Sequence record: MK327928.1
Source: Escherichia phage vB_EcoM_G2133
Length of the DNA stretch: 64,000 nucleotides
Strand: one strand, 5' to 3'
Below the pieces are notes generated by a model. That model worked only from the letters and a program-made list of their open reading frames with translations, did no database searches and had not been told where the DNA came from. The stretch's first letter is position 1. Each line of letters begins with the position of its first letter. A program made the translations under genes and the position numbers. Positions 1-41,246 of this stretch are shown piece by piece.

Positions 1-1384
1 GACCACGGGATTTAATTGTCTCATTAAATTCTTCATCTAATGTAAACACATAATCCGCTTCCATTATTTTAAGATAATGGTTAATCTGCTTATTAAATAA
101 TGGAATGTACTTTTTAATAATAGCACCTTTAATACCAGAATCTTTGAGCATATCAGTCAAAATTCCTCGGTGGTATTTTTCCATTACTAAATTAGTTTTT
201 GTCTTAACAATTTTATCAAGTTCTTCTTGAAGCAGTGCTATTTCATCAGCATGGTCAATAAACTCAGAAGATGCTTTTTCTATAGCCGCTTTAACCTTTT
301 TAGCTTTATCTACCGTCGTGATTAGAGATTGCTTTTTATTGCGAATATCATTTGCCAACGACTGTTGGGTTTTAATATTATCTCGGTATTCATCAACAAG
401 AACTCTTAAATTATCACGATGTGTTGAAAGCTGTTCAAACGAATGCGTACATTCAGAAACTTTATCTTTAATTTTAGAAACAACTTTATCACCGGAACTT
501 AATTGTGACAAACAGGTTGGACATAATCCACCTTCGTGATACATATTAATGACTTTATTATACGAGTCAATTTTTGATTTAATTAAAAATGCTTCTTGAC
601 CGATTTTATTAAATGCATCAGTCGGGTCTTCATCCAAAACAATATTAACTAATCTTTCATTAGCTTCTTCTATTTCCGATTTTAGCGTTCTAGCTTCTTT
701 TGCCAAATCATCATACATATTTTGAAGACGAGTAAGGTTGTCACCCGTTAATTTTTTCTGGCGTTCAACGTTATCATTATATATTTTAATTTGTTGGATA
801 ATACTATCTTTTTTAACATCAAGCACTTGGTTTTGTGAGTTTAATTCACGTATTAGTGCTTTATTAAGCTTATCCATTTCAGCTAATGTTCCTACCTCGA
901 GCAGGTCTTCCACAAGCTTTCTTCGCGCAGGGGTCGACAAACCCATGAAAGGGGTATACCCTGCTGTACCAAGGACAACAATCTGCTTGAAACTGGCATA
1001 TGACATTCCGATAAGCTGTTCAAATTCTGCTTGGAAATCTTTACTGCTGGCAGATTCATTAAGACGTGTATCGTTAACGGTGATTTCGAAAACGTTTGGT
1101 TTTTGTCCTCTTTTGATATAGTACTTTTTCTCATCATATTCCATCCACAGTTCAACTAAAAGTTCTTTCTTATTTGTGCTGTTTATTAATTGACCTTTCT
1201 TTACATCGCGAAATGGCTTACCAAAAAGCCCAAATGTGATGGCTTCTAACATAGTAGACTTACCACCGCCATTTCGGCCAGTAATAAGAGTTTTTTGAAC
1301 CTTATCTAATTGAATGTCAACTCCATTTTGACCAACTGACATTATATTTTTATATTTTACTCTATTAAGTTTAAATGATTTCAT
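1..1384 (-). CDS. 46: Recombination endonuclease subunit gp46 (SbcC/Rad50-like ATPase), N-terminal part; C-terminus lies beyond the window start
   Basis: Minus-strand translation from ATG at 1384 reads MKSFKLNRVKYKNIMSVGQNG...TGRNGGGKST (Walker A) and stays open to the window edge; matches the T4 gp46 N-terminus as I recall it. Confidence 0.85.
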   Translation of the reverse strand, partial: MKSFKLNRVKYKNIMSVGQNGVDIQLDKVQKTLITGRNGGGKSTMLEAITFGLFGKPFRDVKKGQLINSTNKKELLVELWMEYDEKKYYIKRGQKPNVFEITVNDTRLNESASSKDFQAEFEQLIGMSYASFKQIVVLGTAGYTPFMGLSTPARRKLVEDLLEVGTLAEMDKLNKALIRELNSQNQVLDVKKDSIIQQIKIYNDNVERQKKLTGDNLTRLQNMYDDLAKEARTLKSEIEEANERLVNIVLDEDPTDAFNKIGQEAFLIKSKIDSYNKVINMYHEGGLCPTCLSQLSSGDKVVSKIKDKVSECTHSFEQLSTHRDNLRVLVDEYRDNIKTQQSLANDIRNKKQSLITTVDKAKKVKAAIEKASSEFIDHADEIALLQEELDKIVKTKTNLVMEKYHRGILTDMLKDSGIKGAIIKKYIPLFNKQINHYLKIMEADYVFTLDEEFNETIKSRG

Positions 1385-1399
1385 TTTGTATCCAATTGT

Positions 1400-2261
1400 T
1401 CACAATGAAGAAAATTCTTTAACTAAAGCCTGTAATGAAGCCTCTATTGGATATCCATTCTTAACTAACATTTTCCTAAACATCACATGTTTAGGACGAT
1501 TATATGATATCCACAATTCATACAATTTATCTTTATTATCCCAATGATAACCTTTTCGTCGAGATGCTATATGAGCTTTTCTAATCTCCGGATTTTTCCA
1601 ACTAGCAGCTACTGAATTTGATATAGCTATTTTATATTCAGGTTTTGATAAAGCAGCACGAACAGCCTTTTGGTGTTTAATTTTATTTTCTTCGTTATTA
1701 AACCATTCCCTTGAAGCCATTGAAATTTTTTGTTTTGTTTTAAAATTATTTAATCTTTCTTTGTTATCTTTCCTATTTTTTGCTACTGAAAAATATTTTA
1801 ATGCCCTTTCTCTAGCAGCATTTCTATTTTGCGGATTTGAATAATACTGTTGAAGCCTTTTTGATATTGTGTCACTTACATCTTGTTTTATAAAACTATA
1901 CTCAGCAGCTATTAAATCAACTTCGGCTAAAGATAAATTTTTATATGTTTTTCCTGACATCATTCTATTTAAAGCATTTAGCATTTAGCATTTTTCCATT
2001 TTTACCTTTTGCTAATAAGAAATGTGCTTTAAAATGATTAAAATGACTTAAATTAACTAAATTCCATGTAGATTTTAAATATTCAGGAAATATTGATTTA
2101 GGAAGCACGTGGTGTGCTTCCGTTTTACCTGGAGTTTTAACAGTTGAATTCATAGAAATAAAATTAATGTAAGACTTGGCGTCTTCTTCACTCAACGCTA
2201 ATTTTTCAACTAATTCCTTTATTAAAAATTCATCATTAATGTCAAGTTTAAAATTCTTCAC
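1400..2261 (-). pseudogene. HNH homing endonuclease (Mob-like, HNH N-domain plus basic repeat C-domain) split into two frames
   Basis: ORF 1965..2261 carries the HNH motif (HHVLPKS...NLVNLSHFNHFKAHFLL); ORF 1400..1984 carries basic repeat motifs like those in the C-terminus of the HNH gene at 21868..22647. The two overlap in different frames inside a heptamer repeat. Confidence 0.55.
1974..1994. repeat. Tandem heptamer repeat GCATTTA GCATTTA GCATTTT at the HNH frame junction
   Basis: Direct read of the sequence at 1974-1994. Confidence 0.85.
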
Positions 2262-2473
2262 AAAAGATTCCTTTTAATGTATCTTTTAGACCATTCTATC
2301 ATATCATCATAATCTAAAAAGTATTCATCAAATTCAGCCATGCAAACAACACCTTGTGCTGTTTTTGATGTAATATAAATTATTCCAACATATCTAGAAT
2401 CTTCTTCGGTATAATCAATGTTTGCTATGAATTCATCATTAATGTCAAATGTCGAAAACTTCACAGTATGCAT
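2258..2473 (-). CDS. Hypothetical small protein
   Basis: ORF-track ORF trimmed to the internal ATG at 2473; its N-terminus (FSTFDINDEF) resembles the N-terminus of the adjacent HNH ORF. Confidence 0.3.
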   Translation of the reverse strand: MHTVKFSTFDINDEFIANIDYTEEDSRYVGIIYITSKTAQGVVCMAEFDEYFLDYDDMIEWSKRYIKRNLL

Positions 2474-2708
2474 CCTTAATACAAGATACAGCCATATCTC
2501 GTAATGATTTAGGCGTGTCATTATCTAAAATGTTGAAGTTAAAAGATACAGCCCAATCAGTGCAGACTGTAACCTTTTTAATATAATTATCTTCAACCTC
2601 TAGTGGTTCAAACCAGTATTCAATAATTTCTTTATGACCAATATCATCTTTTACTTCGCATTCAAAATGCTGACTCATCATAACATTTTTAAATTCATCA
2701 AAAGTCAT
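2445..2708 (-). CDS. Hypothetical protein
   Basis: 87-aa ORF; its ATG overlaps the gp47 stop codon (ATGA), suggesting translational coupling. Confidence 0.5.
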   Translation of the reverse strand: MTFDEFKNVMMSQHFECEVKDDIGHKEIIEYWFEPLEVEDNYIKKVTVCTDWAVSFNFNILDNDTPKSLRDMAVSCIKDAYCEVFDI

Positions 2709-3724
2709 TGTGTTGCCTCTACATATAACTGATTTGCATATTGAATAAGTGCTTCACGGTCAGAATCAGTGATGTCTGGAATTGCATTAATGTATTCTTC
2801 CATCAATGTCTGAAGCGATTGAACTTCAACTTCTTCACTGTTATCTGACTCGACAGAGTTATCAATCTTTGACACAACTCGTAATGAATGCACAACTTTT
2901 TCTAGTTCAGATTCGAACTTCGTCAGATTTTTGTCTACTTCAGTTACTATAACACGTACTGATAGATTTGTAAAATCTTTATAGTCAATTTTTCCTTTAA
3001 ATGGATAATGAATTCTACGATGCCAGGTAGTATTGTTTGGAATAAATTCCATTCGTTCTGTTTCTGTATCAAACATCCAGAACCCGCGAGGGTCATTCTC
3101 GTCACCTGCTGTTAGTGTCCATGGTGTCCCAATATATCTGACGTTAGCAGCCTCAGAAATAGTATGGAAGTGACCAGACCACACTTCTTTATAAGTCTTA
3201 AGGAAATCAGGTTCAAGACCATGAGATTTCATTCCTTTATAAAAATAAAATCCATTCAGTTCCCAGTGACCAACACAAAAAGAAGCAGATGAAGTTTTGA
3301 TGTGCTCAAGAATTTCACCAGTATTTTCTTCGCACATCCAAGGAATCAAATCAATCAAACACCCGTCAAAATCTACTGTAGTAGGCTTATCATATACTTT
3401 AACATTAGGATATTTAGCCAAAAGCTCAGTAGAAGCATTTGGAGTTAAAGTATTTTTAAAGTGCATATCATGGTTTCCTACAACAGTATGTAGGGTAATA
3501 CCAGCATCATCAAGCATTTGAACTATTTCACGAGCGAACTCCATAGTTTTATGCGTGATTGCTTTTCGCACATCAAAAATATCGCCGTATTGAATCCATG
3601 TAGTAATTTCATTTTTCTTAGAATATTCTATGGCTTGTTTAATTCCATCCAACTGAATGGATTGAACCCACTCATCATCGGCTTTAACGCCTAAATGCCA
3701 ATCACCTAAATTTAAAATTTTCAT
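2705..3724 (-). CDS. 47: Recombination endonuclease subunit gp47 (SbcD/Mre11-like phosphoesterase)
   Basis: 339 aa; calcineurin-like motifs GDWHLG, GDIFD, GNHD; length and sequence match T4 gp47. Confidence 0.9.
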   Translation of the reverse strand: MKILNLGDWHLGVKADDEWVQSIQLDGIKQAIEYSKKNEITTWIQYGDIFDVRKAITHKTMEFAREIVQMLDDAGITLHTVVGNHDMHFKNTLTPNASTELLAKYPNVKVYDKPTTVDFDGCLIDLIPWMCEENTGEILEHIKTSSASFCVGHWELNGFYFYKGMKSHGLEPDFLKTYKEVWSGHFHTISEAANVRYIGTPWTLTAGDENDPRGFWMFDTETERMEFIPNNTTWHRRIHYPFKGKIDYKDFTNLSVRVIVTEVDKNLTKFESELEKVVHSLRVVSKIDNSVESDNSEEVEVQSLQTLMEEYINAIPDITDSDREALIQYANQLYVEATQ

Positions 3725-6056: not shown

Positions 6057-6597
6057 ATAAAAAATCCAAACTAGGAGAATCGTCTACAACACTTTTCTTT
6101 TCAGCCCCCGGTGTTCTATAGGTTGATTCTTCGTAATGCGTCATTTTATCGTAGATGTCTTGAATAAAAGTTTCATCTACTAACGCAACCATATCGTCGT
6201 CACGGCTGTCATAGACATTGTGAACGAAGTAACTATATTTCTTTGCAACTTCCTTACGTTCTTTTTTAATACGTTGGACGAATGCATTAAAACAAGCTTG
6301 AGTTATATACGCATGTGGGTTTTTATATTTCGTTTCATCAAAATTGTGAAGCCCCTTAATAGAAGCTTCTATACCATCTGCAATCATTTCTTGTTTCCAA
6401 GACTGGGTGTATCCTGAAAAGTTGAAACGTTTAGATAAGCCTTCTGCAATAAGCATAATGGCTAATCCGATAGTATCATTCTGACGAACTACTTTATTTG
6501 GGTCTTTATTATTTGCTAATTCTGTTTTCCAATCAATAATAGCTTGTAAAAGCTCTTTATTGTTTACGTAATTATATTTAGGCTTAGTTTCTGACAT
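6040..6597 (-). CDS. 55: Late-transcription sigma factor gp55
   Basis: 185 aa from the ATG at 6597 (track start is GTG); sequence [23 protein letters not shown]... matches T4 gp55. Confidence 0.9.
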
Positions 6598-28380: not shown

Positions 28381-28842
28381 TCATTGAGTTTTAATTACTG
28401 CTTTAGAAGCCTTTCCTGGTAAACGACGACTGTTGATAATTGCCATCCTACATTGAAGTGACGGGTCTTTGAACTTCGCGTTAGGTTTACAAACTGTAAA
28501 TCCAAGCCAAAGATTTCCATCTGTGATTTCTAAACGTCCAGGACGATATTCAACCCCATCAATAAAATCCTCGTCAATGTCAGGACGCGGAGGCATACTC
28601 AGGAATTCATTAACTTCTAAAACATGGTCTTTTATTTTATGGAATAATTCAAAAACGTATGTCTCATCAATCTCCCGTTGAATTGCGCGATCAAGAAGAT
28701 GCTGAGAATATTTTAGATGAAACGATGAGACTCCTGCTGCTTTTGATGCCTCACGAATCTCATTGTTAATTTGACGAAACTCCGACTCAAAGTGACGACG
28801 AAGCTTATTTCGACGGATAAAAACTTCTGTATTGATAGTCAT
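28381..28842 (-). CDS. regB: RegB site-specific endoribonuclease
   Basis: 153 aa; sequence MTINTEVFIRRNKLRRHFESEF... recognised as T4 RegB. Confidence 0.75.
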   Translation of the reverse strand: MTINTEVFIRRNKLRRHFESEFRQINNEIREASKAAGVSSFHLKYSQHLLDRAIQREIDETYVFELFHKIKDHVLEVNEFLSMPPRPDIDEDFIDGVEYRPGRLEITDGNLWLGFTVCKPNAKFKDPSLQCRMAIINSRRLPGKASKAVIKTQ

Positions 28843-28869
28843 GTTATTCTCCTCTTAACTGATAGAAAA

Positions 28870-28899
28870 ATTATACCACAGTCAAGAGGAAAAGTAAAC
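28870..28899 (-). promoter_or_regulatory. T4-type early promoter upstream of regB
   Basis: GTTTAC, 18 nt, TATAAT on the minus strand. Confidence 0.5.
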
Positions 28900-28901
28900 A
28901 G

Positions 28902-29180
28902 TTATTCTTTAAATCTGATCAATTTATTCATAGACTTTGAAACTTCTGCACGAACCTCATGTAAGTTTTTAAGCTGTTCAAGACGCTGTTCATAGTAAGC
29001 AATTTCATCTTCTTCGAGACAGTCCTGTGAATCTTCTTTAAGATAGCGTGCATAGTCCTGGAAAGCTTTACGGACTACTTCCTGGAAGTCATCAAGACTT
29101 TGAATTTTCTTAGGAGCAACAGATACACGACGAGGGGCAGTATAATACTCATAACCAAACCCTGCGCTTAATTGAGCCAT
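28902..29180 (-). CDS. Hypothetical small protein (vs.3 position)
   Basis: 92 aa from the ATG at 29180, which overlaps the upstream stop (TAATG). Confidence 0.4.
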
Positions 29181-29446
29181 TAGTATTTTTCCTCTGGTTG
29201 GAACACTGCGCGACAAGCCCACATACTGGCTTCTTTGAGTTTCGTTTTAGCAATAGTTAACTGATCGAGGCTTTCGGCATAATTCTTCGCGAATTCACAG
29301 TCTTCACAATTATCTAGTGCTTCCCAAAATTCATCGTATAAAGCGTCAAAGATAAGTCCTAAACGAACTTCAGCATCTTTGATAGCATTCACTTTACCGA
29401 TTTTCTCTTCAGTATGTGGCTTATAACCTTTAATATCTTCAATCAT
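29180..29446 (-). CDS. Hypothetical small protein (vs.4 position)
   Basis: 88 aa from the ATG at 29446 with GAGGAAG Shine-Dalgarno. Confidence 0.4.
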
Positions 29447-29660
29447 ATTTGACTTCCTCACCAGTACATAAATCATATTCAACTAAACGAATAGGTTCAT
29501 GAATGCCATATCCTTGAACAGAAATTTCTGTCGTAGGATAAATTCCATCAATATCACCCATGGTCCACGCTTCATTAAATTGCTGTTCGCCTGAATTACT
29601 AAACCACTCGGCGAAAGCATTTAGCACATCTTTAGAACCTTCAATAATTATCTTTGCCAT
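29439..29660 (-). CDS. Hypothetical small acidic protein (vs.5 position)
   Basis: 73 aa; ATG overlaps the stop of the GrcA-like gene (TAATG). Confidence 0.4.
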   Translation of the reverse strand: MAKIIIEGSKDVLNAFAEWFSNSGEQQFNEAWTMGDIDGIYPTTEISVQGYGIHEPIRLVEYDLCTGEEVKYD

Positions 29661-30022
29661 TACAAACTCTCAGTAAAGGTACGAGCGATAACGTCGCGCT
29701 GCTGTTCCGGAGTCAGAGAGTTAAAGCGAACTGCATAACCGGATACACGGATGGTCAGCTGCGGATATTTTTCCGGATGCTTAACTGCATCTTCCAGAGT
29801 TTCACGACGCAGAACGTTAACGTTCAGGTGTTGACCACCTTCAATTTTAACTGTAGGCTGTTGCTCAATTTCAATTTCACGGGCATGCAAACCGTAGAAA
29901 ATTTCTGGGTCTACAAAAGAGTCCTCTTTAAAGGTTTTAGAGACAATAATTCGTGCTTGAATACCATCTTCAAAATAAATAGTACCTTTATGTGTGCCTT
30001 CAAGAATTTGATATGCTTTCAT
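29660..30022 (-). CDS. Autonomous glycyl-radical cofactor (GrcA/YfiD-like)
   Basis: 120 aa; C-terminal ~60 residues ([59 protein letters not shown]) carry the RVSGYAV glycyl-radical signature and look essentially identical to E. coli GrcA. Confidence 0.8.
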
Positions 30023-30029
30023 ATAAACC

Positions 30030-30359
30030 TCAATTAGAAAATAAATTTATCCAAGATTGTTCTTTAATTAAAAACGGCTCAGAATCATATGCCATTAAAC
30101 TCTGTGTGATTAGTCCTTTAAAAGGTCCATCAATAAATTCCATGGTAAAATATGGAATTTTATTCATTAGCCGTGCATTAGGAGCAGTACATAAAACTCT
30201 GCATCCTTTGAATACGCCTTTTTGTAATTTGTATTGCTTGGGATAAAATTCGCTCAAAATATTATTATTCGCTAAAATTTCAAAATGATTCACCAATTTA
30301 TTTTTAATAGTTTTTGGCGAAAAATAAAGATATTCGAAAAGCTGAGTGTCTGTCATCAT
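30030..30359 (-). CDS. Hypothetical protein (vs.7 position)
   Basis: Start at the ATGATG at 30359, overlapping the upstream stop. Confidence 0.4.
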
Positions 30360-30943
30360 TGCATTCCGATTACGAAAAACTGTGGACGAGTAATACCACC
30401 AATACAACAGTTAATATTACAGCAGCAGTGTACAGTGTCAATATGGACACTATAAATCTTATCCATATCAGGAGATTTGACAGGCTCATCAATTATATAC
30501 AAAATTCGCGAAAGCGATAAACCTCTGAACTTGCTTCCTTTATTACCTATAAAACTGCGCACAGAATCAGTAAATAAACGAAAACGTATATCATCATTAG
30601 AATAACGCGAAAATTCCTTTTTAATGTTATTTGCAGAAATTTTAGCGTAAGCTGAAGTATTAGAAAGAACAATAACTGTTCCGCCATCATACAGCCAATT
30701 AGCAGCAAAGTTAGTCACAGCAATTGATTTACCGGATTGACGTCCACCATCTAGTCGAAGTGTGCAATACTGTTTAAGTAAATCTTCAAATGGCGGAATA
30801 TATTCGTTTTTACAAATTTCTTCTACTCTAGCATCAGAATGGTGTGTAAAAGCATTCATCAGGGATAGATAAGGTCCAGTTAAAAATGTTCTCATTTTAT
30901 TCTCTCTAAATTTGGGCCATTCCATGGCGCATGAATTGTCCAT
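30356..30943 (-). CDS. Hypothetical P-loop protein with Cys-rich C-terminus (vs.8 position)
   Basis: Start at the ATG at 30943 (GGAGGGGG Shine-Dalgarno); Walker-A-like GGRQSGKS and LYIIDEP. Confidence 0.45.
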   Translation of the reverse strand: MDNSCAMEWPKFRENKMRTFLTGPYLSLMNAFTHHSDARVEEICKNEYIPPFEDLLKQYCTLRLDGGRQSGKSIAVTNFAANWLYDGGTVIVLSNTSAYAKISANNIKKEFSRYSNDDIRFRLFTDSVRSFIGNKGSKFRGLSLSRILYIIDEPVKSPDMDKIYSVHIDTVHCCCNINCCIGGITRPQFFVIGMQ

Positions 30944-30976
30944 TTCTGTATTTACCCCCTCCAAGTAATTATGATT

Positions 30977-31006
30977 ATACTATCACAATTCTAGGAGAAA
31001 GTAAAC
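30977..31006 (-). promoter_or_regulatory. Possible early promoter
   Basis: GTTTAC present; the -10 element is ambiguous (TAGTAT at 18 nt or TATAAT at 21 nt). Confidence 0.35.
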
Positions 31007-31008
31007 TG

Positions 31009-31311
31009 TTATTTACCTTTAATTACTTTAGCTGCTTCGATAGCCGCTTGCTGAAGGTCATCCATAGACATACCGAATTTAGAAGCAAAGTTATCAATTT
31101 TCTTTTCGACAGCATTCAAAGGCTTGGCCTGTTTACCTTCATTAGCGCCAGGAAGAGCGAGAATACGCTCTTTGTCAATATAAAGGCTTACAAGTTTCTT
31201 ACGGTCTTTATCGGACAAATCATGAAATGAATGGGCCTTTTTATTTATAGCGGCTTCTAATTTACCTGCACTCACTCGCGCTTCAGTAATAAATTCTTGA
31301 TATGTTTTCAT
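31009..31311 (-). CDS. ipII: Internal protein II (capsid-targeted, injected)
   Basis: 100 aa; N-terminal capsid-targeting sequence MKTYQEFITEA. Confidence 0.75.
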   Translation of the reverse strand: MKTYQEFITEARVSAGKLEAAINKKAHSFHDLSDKDRKKLVSLYIDKERILALPGANEGKQAKPLNAVEKKIDNFASKFGMSMDDLQQAAIEAAKVIKGK

Positions 31312-31352: not shown

Positions 31353-31931
31353 TTAGGAATTACGGGCTGCATTAGCAACGGCGTAAGCGTACTGAACATT
31401 AGCGTCTTTAAACGTACCTTTAGAGGTATCTAGTTCTGCCTTAAAGCCGCCTTTAGTCATAACATCGGCAAATTCTTTACGGAAAGCCATTGCATCAAGA
31501 CTTCTCCATAATGATTTGTGCTTGGCGAATTCAAGACCAGCGTAGTTGACAGCCTTAGCTAATTTGTTATCAATAACCCATTTACCAGCTTTAGGCACAA
31601 ACACCGGGCCTTTCTGTTTAGAGAACAGTTTTAAATTCCAGCGACGAAGGTCACCGTCGGCTTTAACAAAAGCTGCGTCTAAGTTACTAGCAACAACATC
31701 CTGAATATGGCCAAATTTAAGCCCATCAACTTCAATATTTAGATCGGTACGCCAGCGAAGTCCTTCCCAAGCGAAAGCTTTAAAGTCGGAAGCCTTTGTA
31801 GCTAAGTACCGTTCAATAGGAGCTGTTTTAGGGTCAAAGCCGTTTCCCGATCGGTAGGTCCACTCATCTTTATTAATGCCTTTGGCCTTTACTACAGAAG
31901 CTTCGGCAATAAATTCTTGATATGTTTTCAT
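31353..31931 (-). CDS. ipIII: Internal protein III
   Basis: 192 aa; N-terminal MKTYQEFIAEA, and the body matches T4 IPIII as I recall it. Confidence 0.8.
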   Translation of the reverse strand: MKTYQEFIAEASVVKAKGINKDEWTYRSGNGFDPKTAPIERYLATKASDFKAFAWEGLRWRTDLNIEVDGLKFGHIQDVVASNLDAAFVKADGDLRRWNLKLFSKQKGPVFVPKAGKWVIDNKLAKAVNYAGLEFAKHKSLWRSLDAMAFRKEFADVMTKGGFKAELDTSKGTFKDANVQYAYAVANAARNS

Positions 31932-32258: not shown

Positions 32259-32672
32259 TTAGTAAATTGATTTACCAAAGTATTTGTACCAAGTCGGACG
32301 TTGAGCAATTTTTTCATCTAAGCGTGCTTGACTTATCGCAATGGACGCTTCGGACGGGACATAATTATTACGAAATTCTACAGGAATGTCGGAAATATCC
32401 TGGACTGTCGTGTCCTTGATTTTGAAACCACGTTTCAAACATTCAGCGATTAGCTCGATTTGACGTAAACGTAAAAATTCGAGTTTGTCGTAAAAGAATG
32501 TTACGTGACCTGTGCCTAAGATAAATGTTGGAGAGATTTTAAAATCCTTTACACGTTTACCGTTTTGAACATGTTTACGGACTGCACCAAATACGCGTGG
32601 TAATTCACGATACTCAGCCATAAGATGTTGGTCGGTCAATTCAAAAACAAGTGTTAAATTGATACGGGTCAT
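32259..32672 (-). CDS. denV: Endonuclease V (pyrimidine-dimer DNA glycosylase) DenV
   Basis: Start at the ATG at 32672; MTRINLTLV...[19 protein letters not shown] matches T4 endonuclease V. Confidence 0.88.

Positions 32673-40549: not shown

Positions 40550-41246
<697 letters not shown>

Follow-up and report, generated by a model that had tools for sequence, protein, structure and literature searches.

Results

Gene content and junctions of the vs.8-regB string

The 64,000-nucleotide stretch of Escherichia phage vB_EcoM_G2133 DNA analysed here (MK327928.1; hereafter the window) carries a string of seven genes that reads, 5' to 3' and on the minus strand throughout, vs.8, vs.7, vs.6, vs.5, vs.4, vs.3 and regB. 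The string opens with vs.8 (30356..30943; 195 aa) and vs.7 (30030..30359; 109 aa), continues with vs.6 (29660..30022; 120 aa), which encodes a GrcA-like autonomous glycyl-radical cofactor (Pfam Gly_radical, 2.5e-18; vs.6/GrcA in the T4 annotation), and then passes through vs.5 (29439..29660; ATG start, TGA stop), which encodes a 73-aa acidic protein, vs.4, or acb2 (29180..29446; ATG start, TAA stop; 88 aa), and vs.3, or tadIV-1 (28902..29180; ATG start, TAA stop; 92 aa). The endoribonuclease gene regB (28381..28842; 153 aa; Pfam REGB_T4, 1.4e-68) serves as the downstream landmark. An initial sequence-only reading of this DNA had described three chained small ORFs, in the position of T4 vs.3 to vs.5, lying upstream of regB; the ORF list and our reading of the reverse strand place all three on the minus strand where that reading had them, and their location upstream of regB is borne out, with a 59-nt spacer separating vs.3 from regB. 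The vs.6 product carries the motif RVSGYAVRF, which makes vs.6 a metabolic spare-part gene amid a counter-defence cluster.

The mechanical ORF list starts vs.4 and vs.3 at upstream TTG/GTG codons (29482 and 29222), but we take the ATG codons as the actual starts, since the homologues of solved structure begin at the same residues. Each of the three start codons is preceded by a purine-rich Shine-Dalgarno-like element; this reads GAGGAAG for vs.4 and AGAGGA for vs.3, and the vs.5 element, GAGAG, is weaker. A scan of the minus strand from vs.8 to regB found no terminator-like sites, and a consensus scan placed a TG-extended promoter-like site, TTTACT-17-TATAAT, in the vs.3-regB spacer (28870..28898, minus strand), as a pattern match only. 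We infer that the vs.8-regB string is co-transcribed.

Read from the sequence, the junctions of the three-ORF chain are TAATG or stop-start overlaps, as had been claimed, and the stop/start overlap expected of a translationally coupled operon occurs at all three junctions from vs.6 to vs.3. The vs.6/vs.5 junction is a TAATG (29658..29662, minus strand) in which one nucleotide, at 29660, is shared; vs.5 and vs.4 overlap by 8 nt in ATGATTGA (29439..29446, minus strand), such that vs.4 starts 8 nt within vs.5, which also contains the vs.4 Shine-Dalgarno sequence; and vs.4 and vs.3 meet in a second TAATG (29178..29182, minus strand) with one shared nucleotide at 29180. Similar arrangements recur in related phages: the 8-nt vs.5/vs.4 overlap is also annotated in T4T, an overlap of 4-11 nt joins the same two genes in PHB12, PEi26, X20 and WG01, the vs.4/vs.3 TAATG is also annotated in T4, T4T, PHB12 and PEi26, and the vs.6/vs.5 TAATG overlap occurs in Tequatrovirus and Mosigvirus. 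Overlaps are nevertheless the norm in T4, where 12 of 26 neighbouring gene junctions in a 9-kb stretch overlap by 1-11 nt, so that the chaining of these ORFs is ordinary packing of T4 early genes and not a distinguishing feature. Translational coupling through the overlaps is plausible, and the maintenance of the vs.5/vs.4 overlap despite sequence divergence would fit it, although each gene could also initiate independently, since each has its own Shine-Dalgarno-like element.

GGAG, the motif at which RegB cleaves, forms part of the Shine-Dalgarno sequence of both vs.8 (GGAG at 30962..30959, minus strand) and regB (GGAG at 28852..28849, minus strand), and three further copies lie inside regB. 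A sequence scan of the vs.8 to regB region found no GGAG within vs.7-vs.3, and we rejected RegB processing sites inside the vs.3-vs.7 cassette on this ground. With the motif missing from vs.7-vs.3, the sponge genes described below may escape RegB cleavage while the translation of vs.8 is targeted.

Relation to T4 and distribution across genera

The proposed synteny with T4 vs.3 to vs.5 was confirmed by DNA alignment, in which the window and T4 are colinear and 97.4% identical over 4.15 kb, the colinearity running from tk.3 (T4 locus position 3713) through vs, vs.1 and regB into vs.8. A 1.8-kb segment spanning the locus matches 821 phage records, nearly all of them enterobacterial T4-like phages, with a best identity of 98.3%. 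When the query was extended to 24 kb, the best phage record reached only 88% coverage at 96% identity, which indicates that the window is a mosaic Tequatrovirus. Judged by its sequence, the locus corresponds to vs.5-vs.4-vs.3 in a T4-like phage of the genus Tequatrovirus.

We compared the locus in Tequatrovirus T4T and in one representative of each of six other Tevenvirinae genera by mapping the window proteins onto each (locus coordinates about 1100-3200). Three of the genes, vs.8, vs.5 and regB, are present in all seven genera sampled; vs.4 is present in six of the seven, being missing in Gelderlandvirus UTK0003. By comparison, vs.3 occurs in three of the seven, in its long form only in Tequatrovirus and as short forms in Mosigvirus PHB12 and Kanagawavirus PEi26; tadIV-1 is missing in the representatives of Winklervirus, Jiaodavirus, Dhakavirus and Gelderlandvirus. 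The vs.6/GrcA gene is likewise found in three of the seven genera, and in Jiaodavirus it lies between vs.5 and vs.4. The Vs.5 homologue of Jiaodavirus KpnM6E1 is annotated at 114 aa. Thus acb2 and tadIV-1 behave as accessories that are gained and lost independently of one another.

vs.4 encodes Acb2

The ORF at 29180..29446 had been put forward as a positional candidate for the anti-CBASS sponge Vs.4/Acb2, with alignment to T4 Vs.4 as the proposed check. All 88 of its residues are identical to those of T4 Vs.4 (100% identity over 88 residues with PDB 7UQ2, E=1.9e-57), and the Pfam match agrees with the assignment. The reading had also held that the candidate should fall if similarity to Acb2-family proteins and nucleotide binding were both missing; at the sequence level that similarity is present, with Vs.4 matching PF24729 (Acb2_Tad1_hairpin) at 71.4 bits against a cutoff of 27 (E=7.1e-20) over profile positions 1-58 of 58. 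The premise that Acb2 of T4 is Vs.4 agrees with the literature, both as Jenson et al. (2023) is summarised in PMC10449767 and in PMC12657218. The T4 protein (7UQ2; Jenson et al., 2023; Huiting et al., 2023) is thus the same protein in the same position, with the same overlaps with vs.5 and vs.3.

At the nucleotide level, vs.4 of the window differs from that of T4T by 12 synonymous and 0 non-synonymous differences, leaving no difference between the proteins, and this pattern of 12 synonymous differences alone reads as a clear signature of purifying selection. More distant relatives are also detectable: Vs.4 weakly matches the structures of PaMx33 Acb2 (P26; 8IXZ and 8H2J, E about 0.03), which also belongs to PF24729 and aligns over residues 4-85 with an N-terminal IKGY and a C-terminal RA(V/I)xQP in common. 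This similarity is distant, PaMx33 being a Pseudomonas phage of another phage family and host.

The published work on T4 Vs.4 indicates what the window protein would do. According to PMC10449767, ITC shows that T4 Vs.4 binds cGAMP, its crystals contain a hexamer with three cGAMP molecules, and in vitro it soaks up cyclic nucleotides and so raises the activation threshold of CapV; its roughly 198 phage homologues were named Acb2. PDB entry 7UQ2, whose sequence is identical to window Vs.4, contains 6 chains. T4 acb2/vs.4 has in addition been found to be both necessary and sufficient for triggering Panoptes, and its product binds 2',3'-c-di-AMP (PMC12657218). By carry-over from this identical protein, window Vs.4 is expected to bind the same ligands, assemble into the same oligomer and counter defence in the same way: a Vs.4/Acb2 homohexamer would bind the cyclic oligonucleotides that CBASS CD-NTases produce, 3'3'-cGAMP and its relatives, and thereby keep the CBASS effector inactive, and the same nucleotide-binding activity would expose the phage to detection by Panoptes.

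vs.3 encodes TadIV-1

In naming its sponge candidate, the sequence-only reading had hedged that it might be the neighbouring ORF instead, and this hedge also held, since Vs.3 is a separate and independently published sponge, TadIV-1 (PMC13243611). In T4, TadIV-1 is the product of vs.3 and the phage's sole inhibitor of type IV Thoeris (PMC13243611; Nat Commun, April 2026), and deletion of vs.3 makes T4 sensitive to that system; the protein sequesters N7-cADPR as a two-helix homodimer whose pocket is formed by a flexible N-terminal loop (PMC13243611). Activity is confined to the long homologues (>80 aa), the short forms having none, and depends on residues R17, R18 and K24 of the T4 protein (PMC13243611). 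On this basis, the short Vs.3 forms of PHB12 and PEi26 are presumably inactive.

Window Vs.3 has the length of the long form with its N-terminal loop (92 aa, against a threshold of >80 aa) and is identical to T4 Vs.3 at 90 of 92 residues (97.8%), differing only by N38K and T64E. R17, R18 and K24 (T4 numbering) are kept, K25 is present too, and K48, E49 and H74 are the counterparts of K57, E58 and H83 in the UPEC07 TadIV-1 (PDB 9WIW), to which Vs.3 aligns over residues 1-92 with E=4.9e-38. The UPEC07 protein has 9 extra loop residues that window Vs.3 lacks. Loss of function through N38K or T64E is unlikely, because residues differ at position 38 among homologues (Q in UPEC07) and the active UPEC07 protein itself carries E at the position of E64, and we therefore expect window Vs.3 to be functional, with ligand binding and an anti-defence role taken over from the 98%-identical T4 protein. 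The loop of the Vs.3/TadIV-1 homodimer would capture N7-cADPR, the signal that TIR makes in type IV Thoeris, and the caspase-like effector would then not be activated. Presence of tadIV-1 does not by itself guarantee the phenotype, since T2 has a functional TadIV-1 homologue and yet can be sensitive to type IV Thoeris (PMC13243611).

Homologues of Vs.3/TadIV-1 are named 'endoribonuclease' in PDB 9WIW and in several phage records (e.g., MN895435, teqhal). In our Pfam search, REGB_T4 matched the regB product, and Vs.3 gave only a sub-threshold match to Tex_N; the label has probably spread from the adjacent regB.

vs.5 and the T4 reference genome

The window vs.5 differs from the form annotated in the T4 reference genome, where Vs.5 (NP_049729; NC_000866 locus 6382..6558) is 58 aa long and has no overlap with vs.4. 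Both lie at one locus, and over its first 17 residues the reference protein agrees with that of the window except for E10K. The T4 reference lacks one base, reading GCTTTCG-CGAG where the window has an extra C in GCTTTCGCCGAG, and the resulting frameshift gives the 58-aa product a tail unrelated to that of the window protein. This deletion is confined to X04567, AF158101 and NC_000866, of which X04567 is the original partial T4 entry of 8,008 bp from the 1980s, whereas the extra base and the 73-aa form are found in all the resequenced T4 isolates listed and in about 985 other phage records; in T4T, vs.5 is annotated at 222 nt and 73 aa with an 8-nt overlap with vs.4. The 58-aa T4 Vs.5 is probably a legacy one-base sequencing error that has spread into protein databases, and the three-ORF chain of the sequence-only reading is more accurate on this point than the T4 reference annotation. 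The true Vs.5 would accordingly be 73 aa long, and ORF-library screens based on the reference would have used the wrong protein.

Vs.5 is strongly acidic, with 14 D/E against 4 K/R and a pI of 4.14 in 73 aa. It matches phrog_1986 over its full length (2.8e-43; residues 1-73 on profile positions 1-76 of 76), its PHROGs matches being families of unknown function only, and a tblastn search finds it in 988 phage records, apparently all Straboviridae, down to about 40% identity. Searches of Vs.5 against Pfam and NCBIfam gave no matches; a word-indexed search of 5.8 billion proteins returned 5 clusters, consisting of close phage homologues only; a Foldseek search of BFVD returned only its own uncharacterised Straboviridae homologues; and a literature search by the gene names vs.3, vs.5 and regB returned nothing relevant. 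An AF2 model built on a 10-sequence alignment (pLDDT 80) predicts a long helix over residues 10-33 followed by a beta-hairpin. Taken together, the synonymous-only change in vs.4, the 988 records of Vs.5 and the solved homologues of Vs.3 and Vs.4 mark the three ORFs as real genes and not chance reading frames.

Two leads from these searches were set aside. A match to SurE in the PDB sequence search was marginal and partial (E=0.008 over 38 residues) and is treated as chance. An exhaustive HMMER search of 1.84 billion representatives gave 7 matches, which include short phage homologues as well as proteins of 895 aa (P0007) and 3501 aa (P0008). P0007, a metagenomic FG-GAP/VCBS-type repeat protein, aligns with Vs.5 residues 13-61 in 7 matched stretches (HMMER E=1.3e-14). 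The conserved Vs.5 motif WFSNSGEQxFxE resembles the P0007 repeat unit WFENNGSQSFTE. All that the two proteins have in common is the short motif WFxNxGxQxFxE. Kinship with P0007 and P0008 was rejected as repeat-amplified motif similarity, because only this short repeated motif is involved and the segment is helical in the Vs.5 model; the likeness to P0007 is probably a motif coincidence inflated by repeats.

Discussion

We conclude, with little room for doubt, that the locus is a Tequatrovirus vs.5-vs.4-vs.3 segment that encodes two independent sponges, Acb2 and TadIV-1, together with the conserved acidic protein Vs.5. The identities of Acb2 and TadIV-1 were already known; the comparison presented here establishes which genes these are in the window, that their products are identical or nearly identical to characterised T4 proteins and that the published key residues are retained. 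Both sponges would disarm signalling-based immunity by sequestering, and not degrading, the alarm molecule, a strategy in which small oligomeric proteins capture immune second messengers and which they have in common with Tad1, Tad2, Acb4, sequestin and lockin (PMC13243611). These proteins have other folds and ligands and gave no match to Vs.3 or Vs.5 in our searches, although Tad1 and Acb2 have a hairpin domain in common in Pfam.

The overlaps that chain the three genes invite the suggestion that their products are subunits of one anti-defence machine whose stoichiometry the overlaps fix, and the stop-start overlaps at both junctions are indeed kept in diverged genera in which the proteins are at 45-70% identity. 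Such a machine is nonetheless very improbable: vs.3, vs.4 and vs.5 are gained and lost independently (three, six and seven of the seven genera, respectively), grcA separates vs.5 from vs.4 in Jiaodavirus, Vs.3 and Acb2 each suffice for their activities when expressed singly from plasmids (PMC13243611; PMC12657218), and the known oligomers are homomeric, a hexamer for Acb2 (7UQ2) and a dimer for TadIV-1 (9WIW). We rejected a single three-protein complex because of the independent gain and loss of the genes across genera.

What Vs.5 contributes to this locus can be approached from its neighbourhood and its distribution, which point in different directions. Its gene adjoins, with overlap, two validated sponges; the protein is small and acidic, has no homologue of known function or fold match in the searches, and is restricted to Straboviridae, all of which would suit a third anti-defence protein in the cassette, such as an acidic inhibitor that binds protein or mimics DNA. 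Individual expression of Vs.3-Vs.8, however, impaired type IV Thoeris only in the case of vs.3 (PMC13243611), which implies that Vs.5 is not an inhibitor of that system. Its presence in all seven genera sampled moreover suits a conserved early gene of accessory or physiological function better than an anti-defence gene, whose distribution is typically patchy, and guilt by association is weak where early regions hold many unrelated small genes, so we regard an anti-defence role for Vs.5 as rather unlikely. The fuller version of this idea, in which Vs.5 would be a third anti-defence factor with a new fold, missed in part through the frameshifted 58-aa reference, and vs.8-regB a compact multi-target counter-defence cassette, is speculative and strikes us as improbable. 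The same presence in all sampled genera, independent of acb2 and tadIV-1, argues instead for a host-takeover or metabolic modulator without an immune role, tied to Vs.6/GrcA or to regB-linked RNA metabolism, as do the constant position of vs.5 inside the vs.8 to regB string and its TAATG overlap with vs.6 in Tequatrovirus and Mosigvirus. Against this stand the absence of vs.6 from four of the seven sampled genera, all of which keep vs.5, and searches that gave no domain, motif or structural hint of an activity; we hold the modulator role tentatively, as close to an even prospect.

The window contains a further gene that bears on the defences this phage may face. At 40553..41008 (minus strand) it encodes 57B/Acb1, which shows 99.3% identity to T4 57B across 152 aa. 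Acb1, a cyclic-nucleotide phosphodiesterase, is the other anti-CBASS protein of T4. Together with vs.4/Acb2, this gene means that the phage carries both Acb1 and Acb2. The window thus holds the standard T4 counter-immunity set, comprising Acb2 (directed at CBASS and a liability against Panoptes), TadIV-1 (directed at type IV Thoeris) and Acb1 (57B), a set that helps to predict the defences that the phage can overcome without adding new biology.

Upstream of the string, the gene order of the window departs from that of T4, in which ipIII, ipII, denV and vs.8 follow one another. In the window, vs.8 comes directly after ipII (31009..31311; intervening stretch 30943..31009, minus strand), and denV (32262..32672, minus strand; product 89.8% identical to T4 DenV) lies farther upstream, past an IPIII-like gene (31353..31931). 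The internal-protein gene region has therefore undergone a local rearrangement in the window relative to T4.
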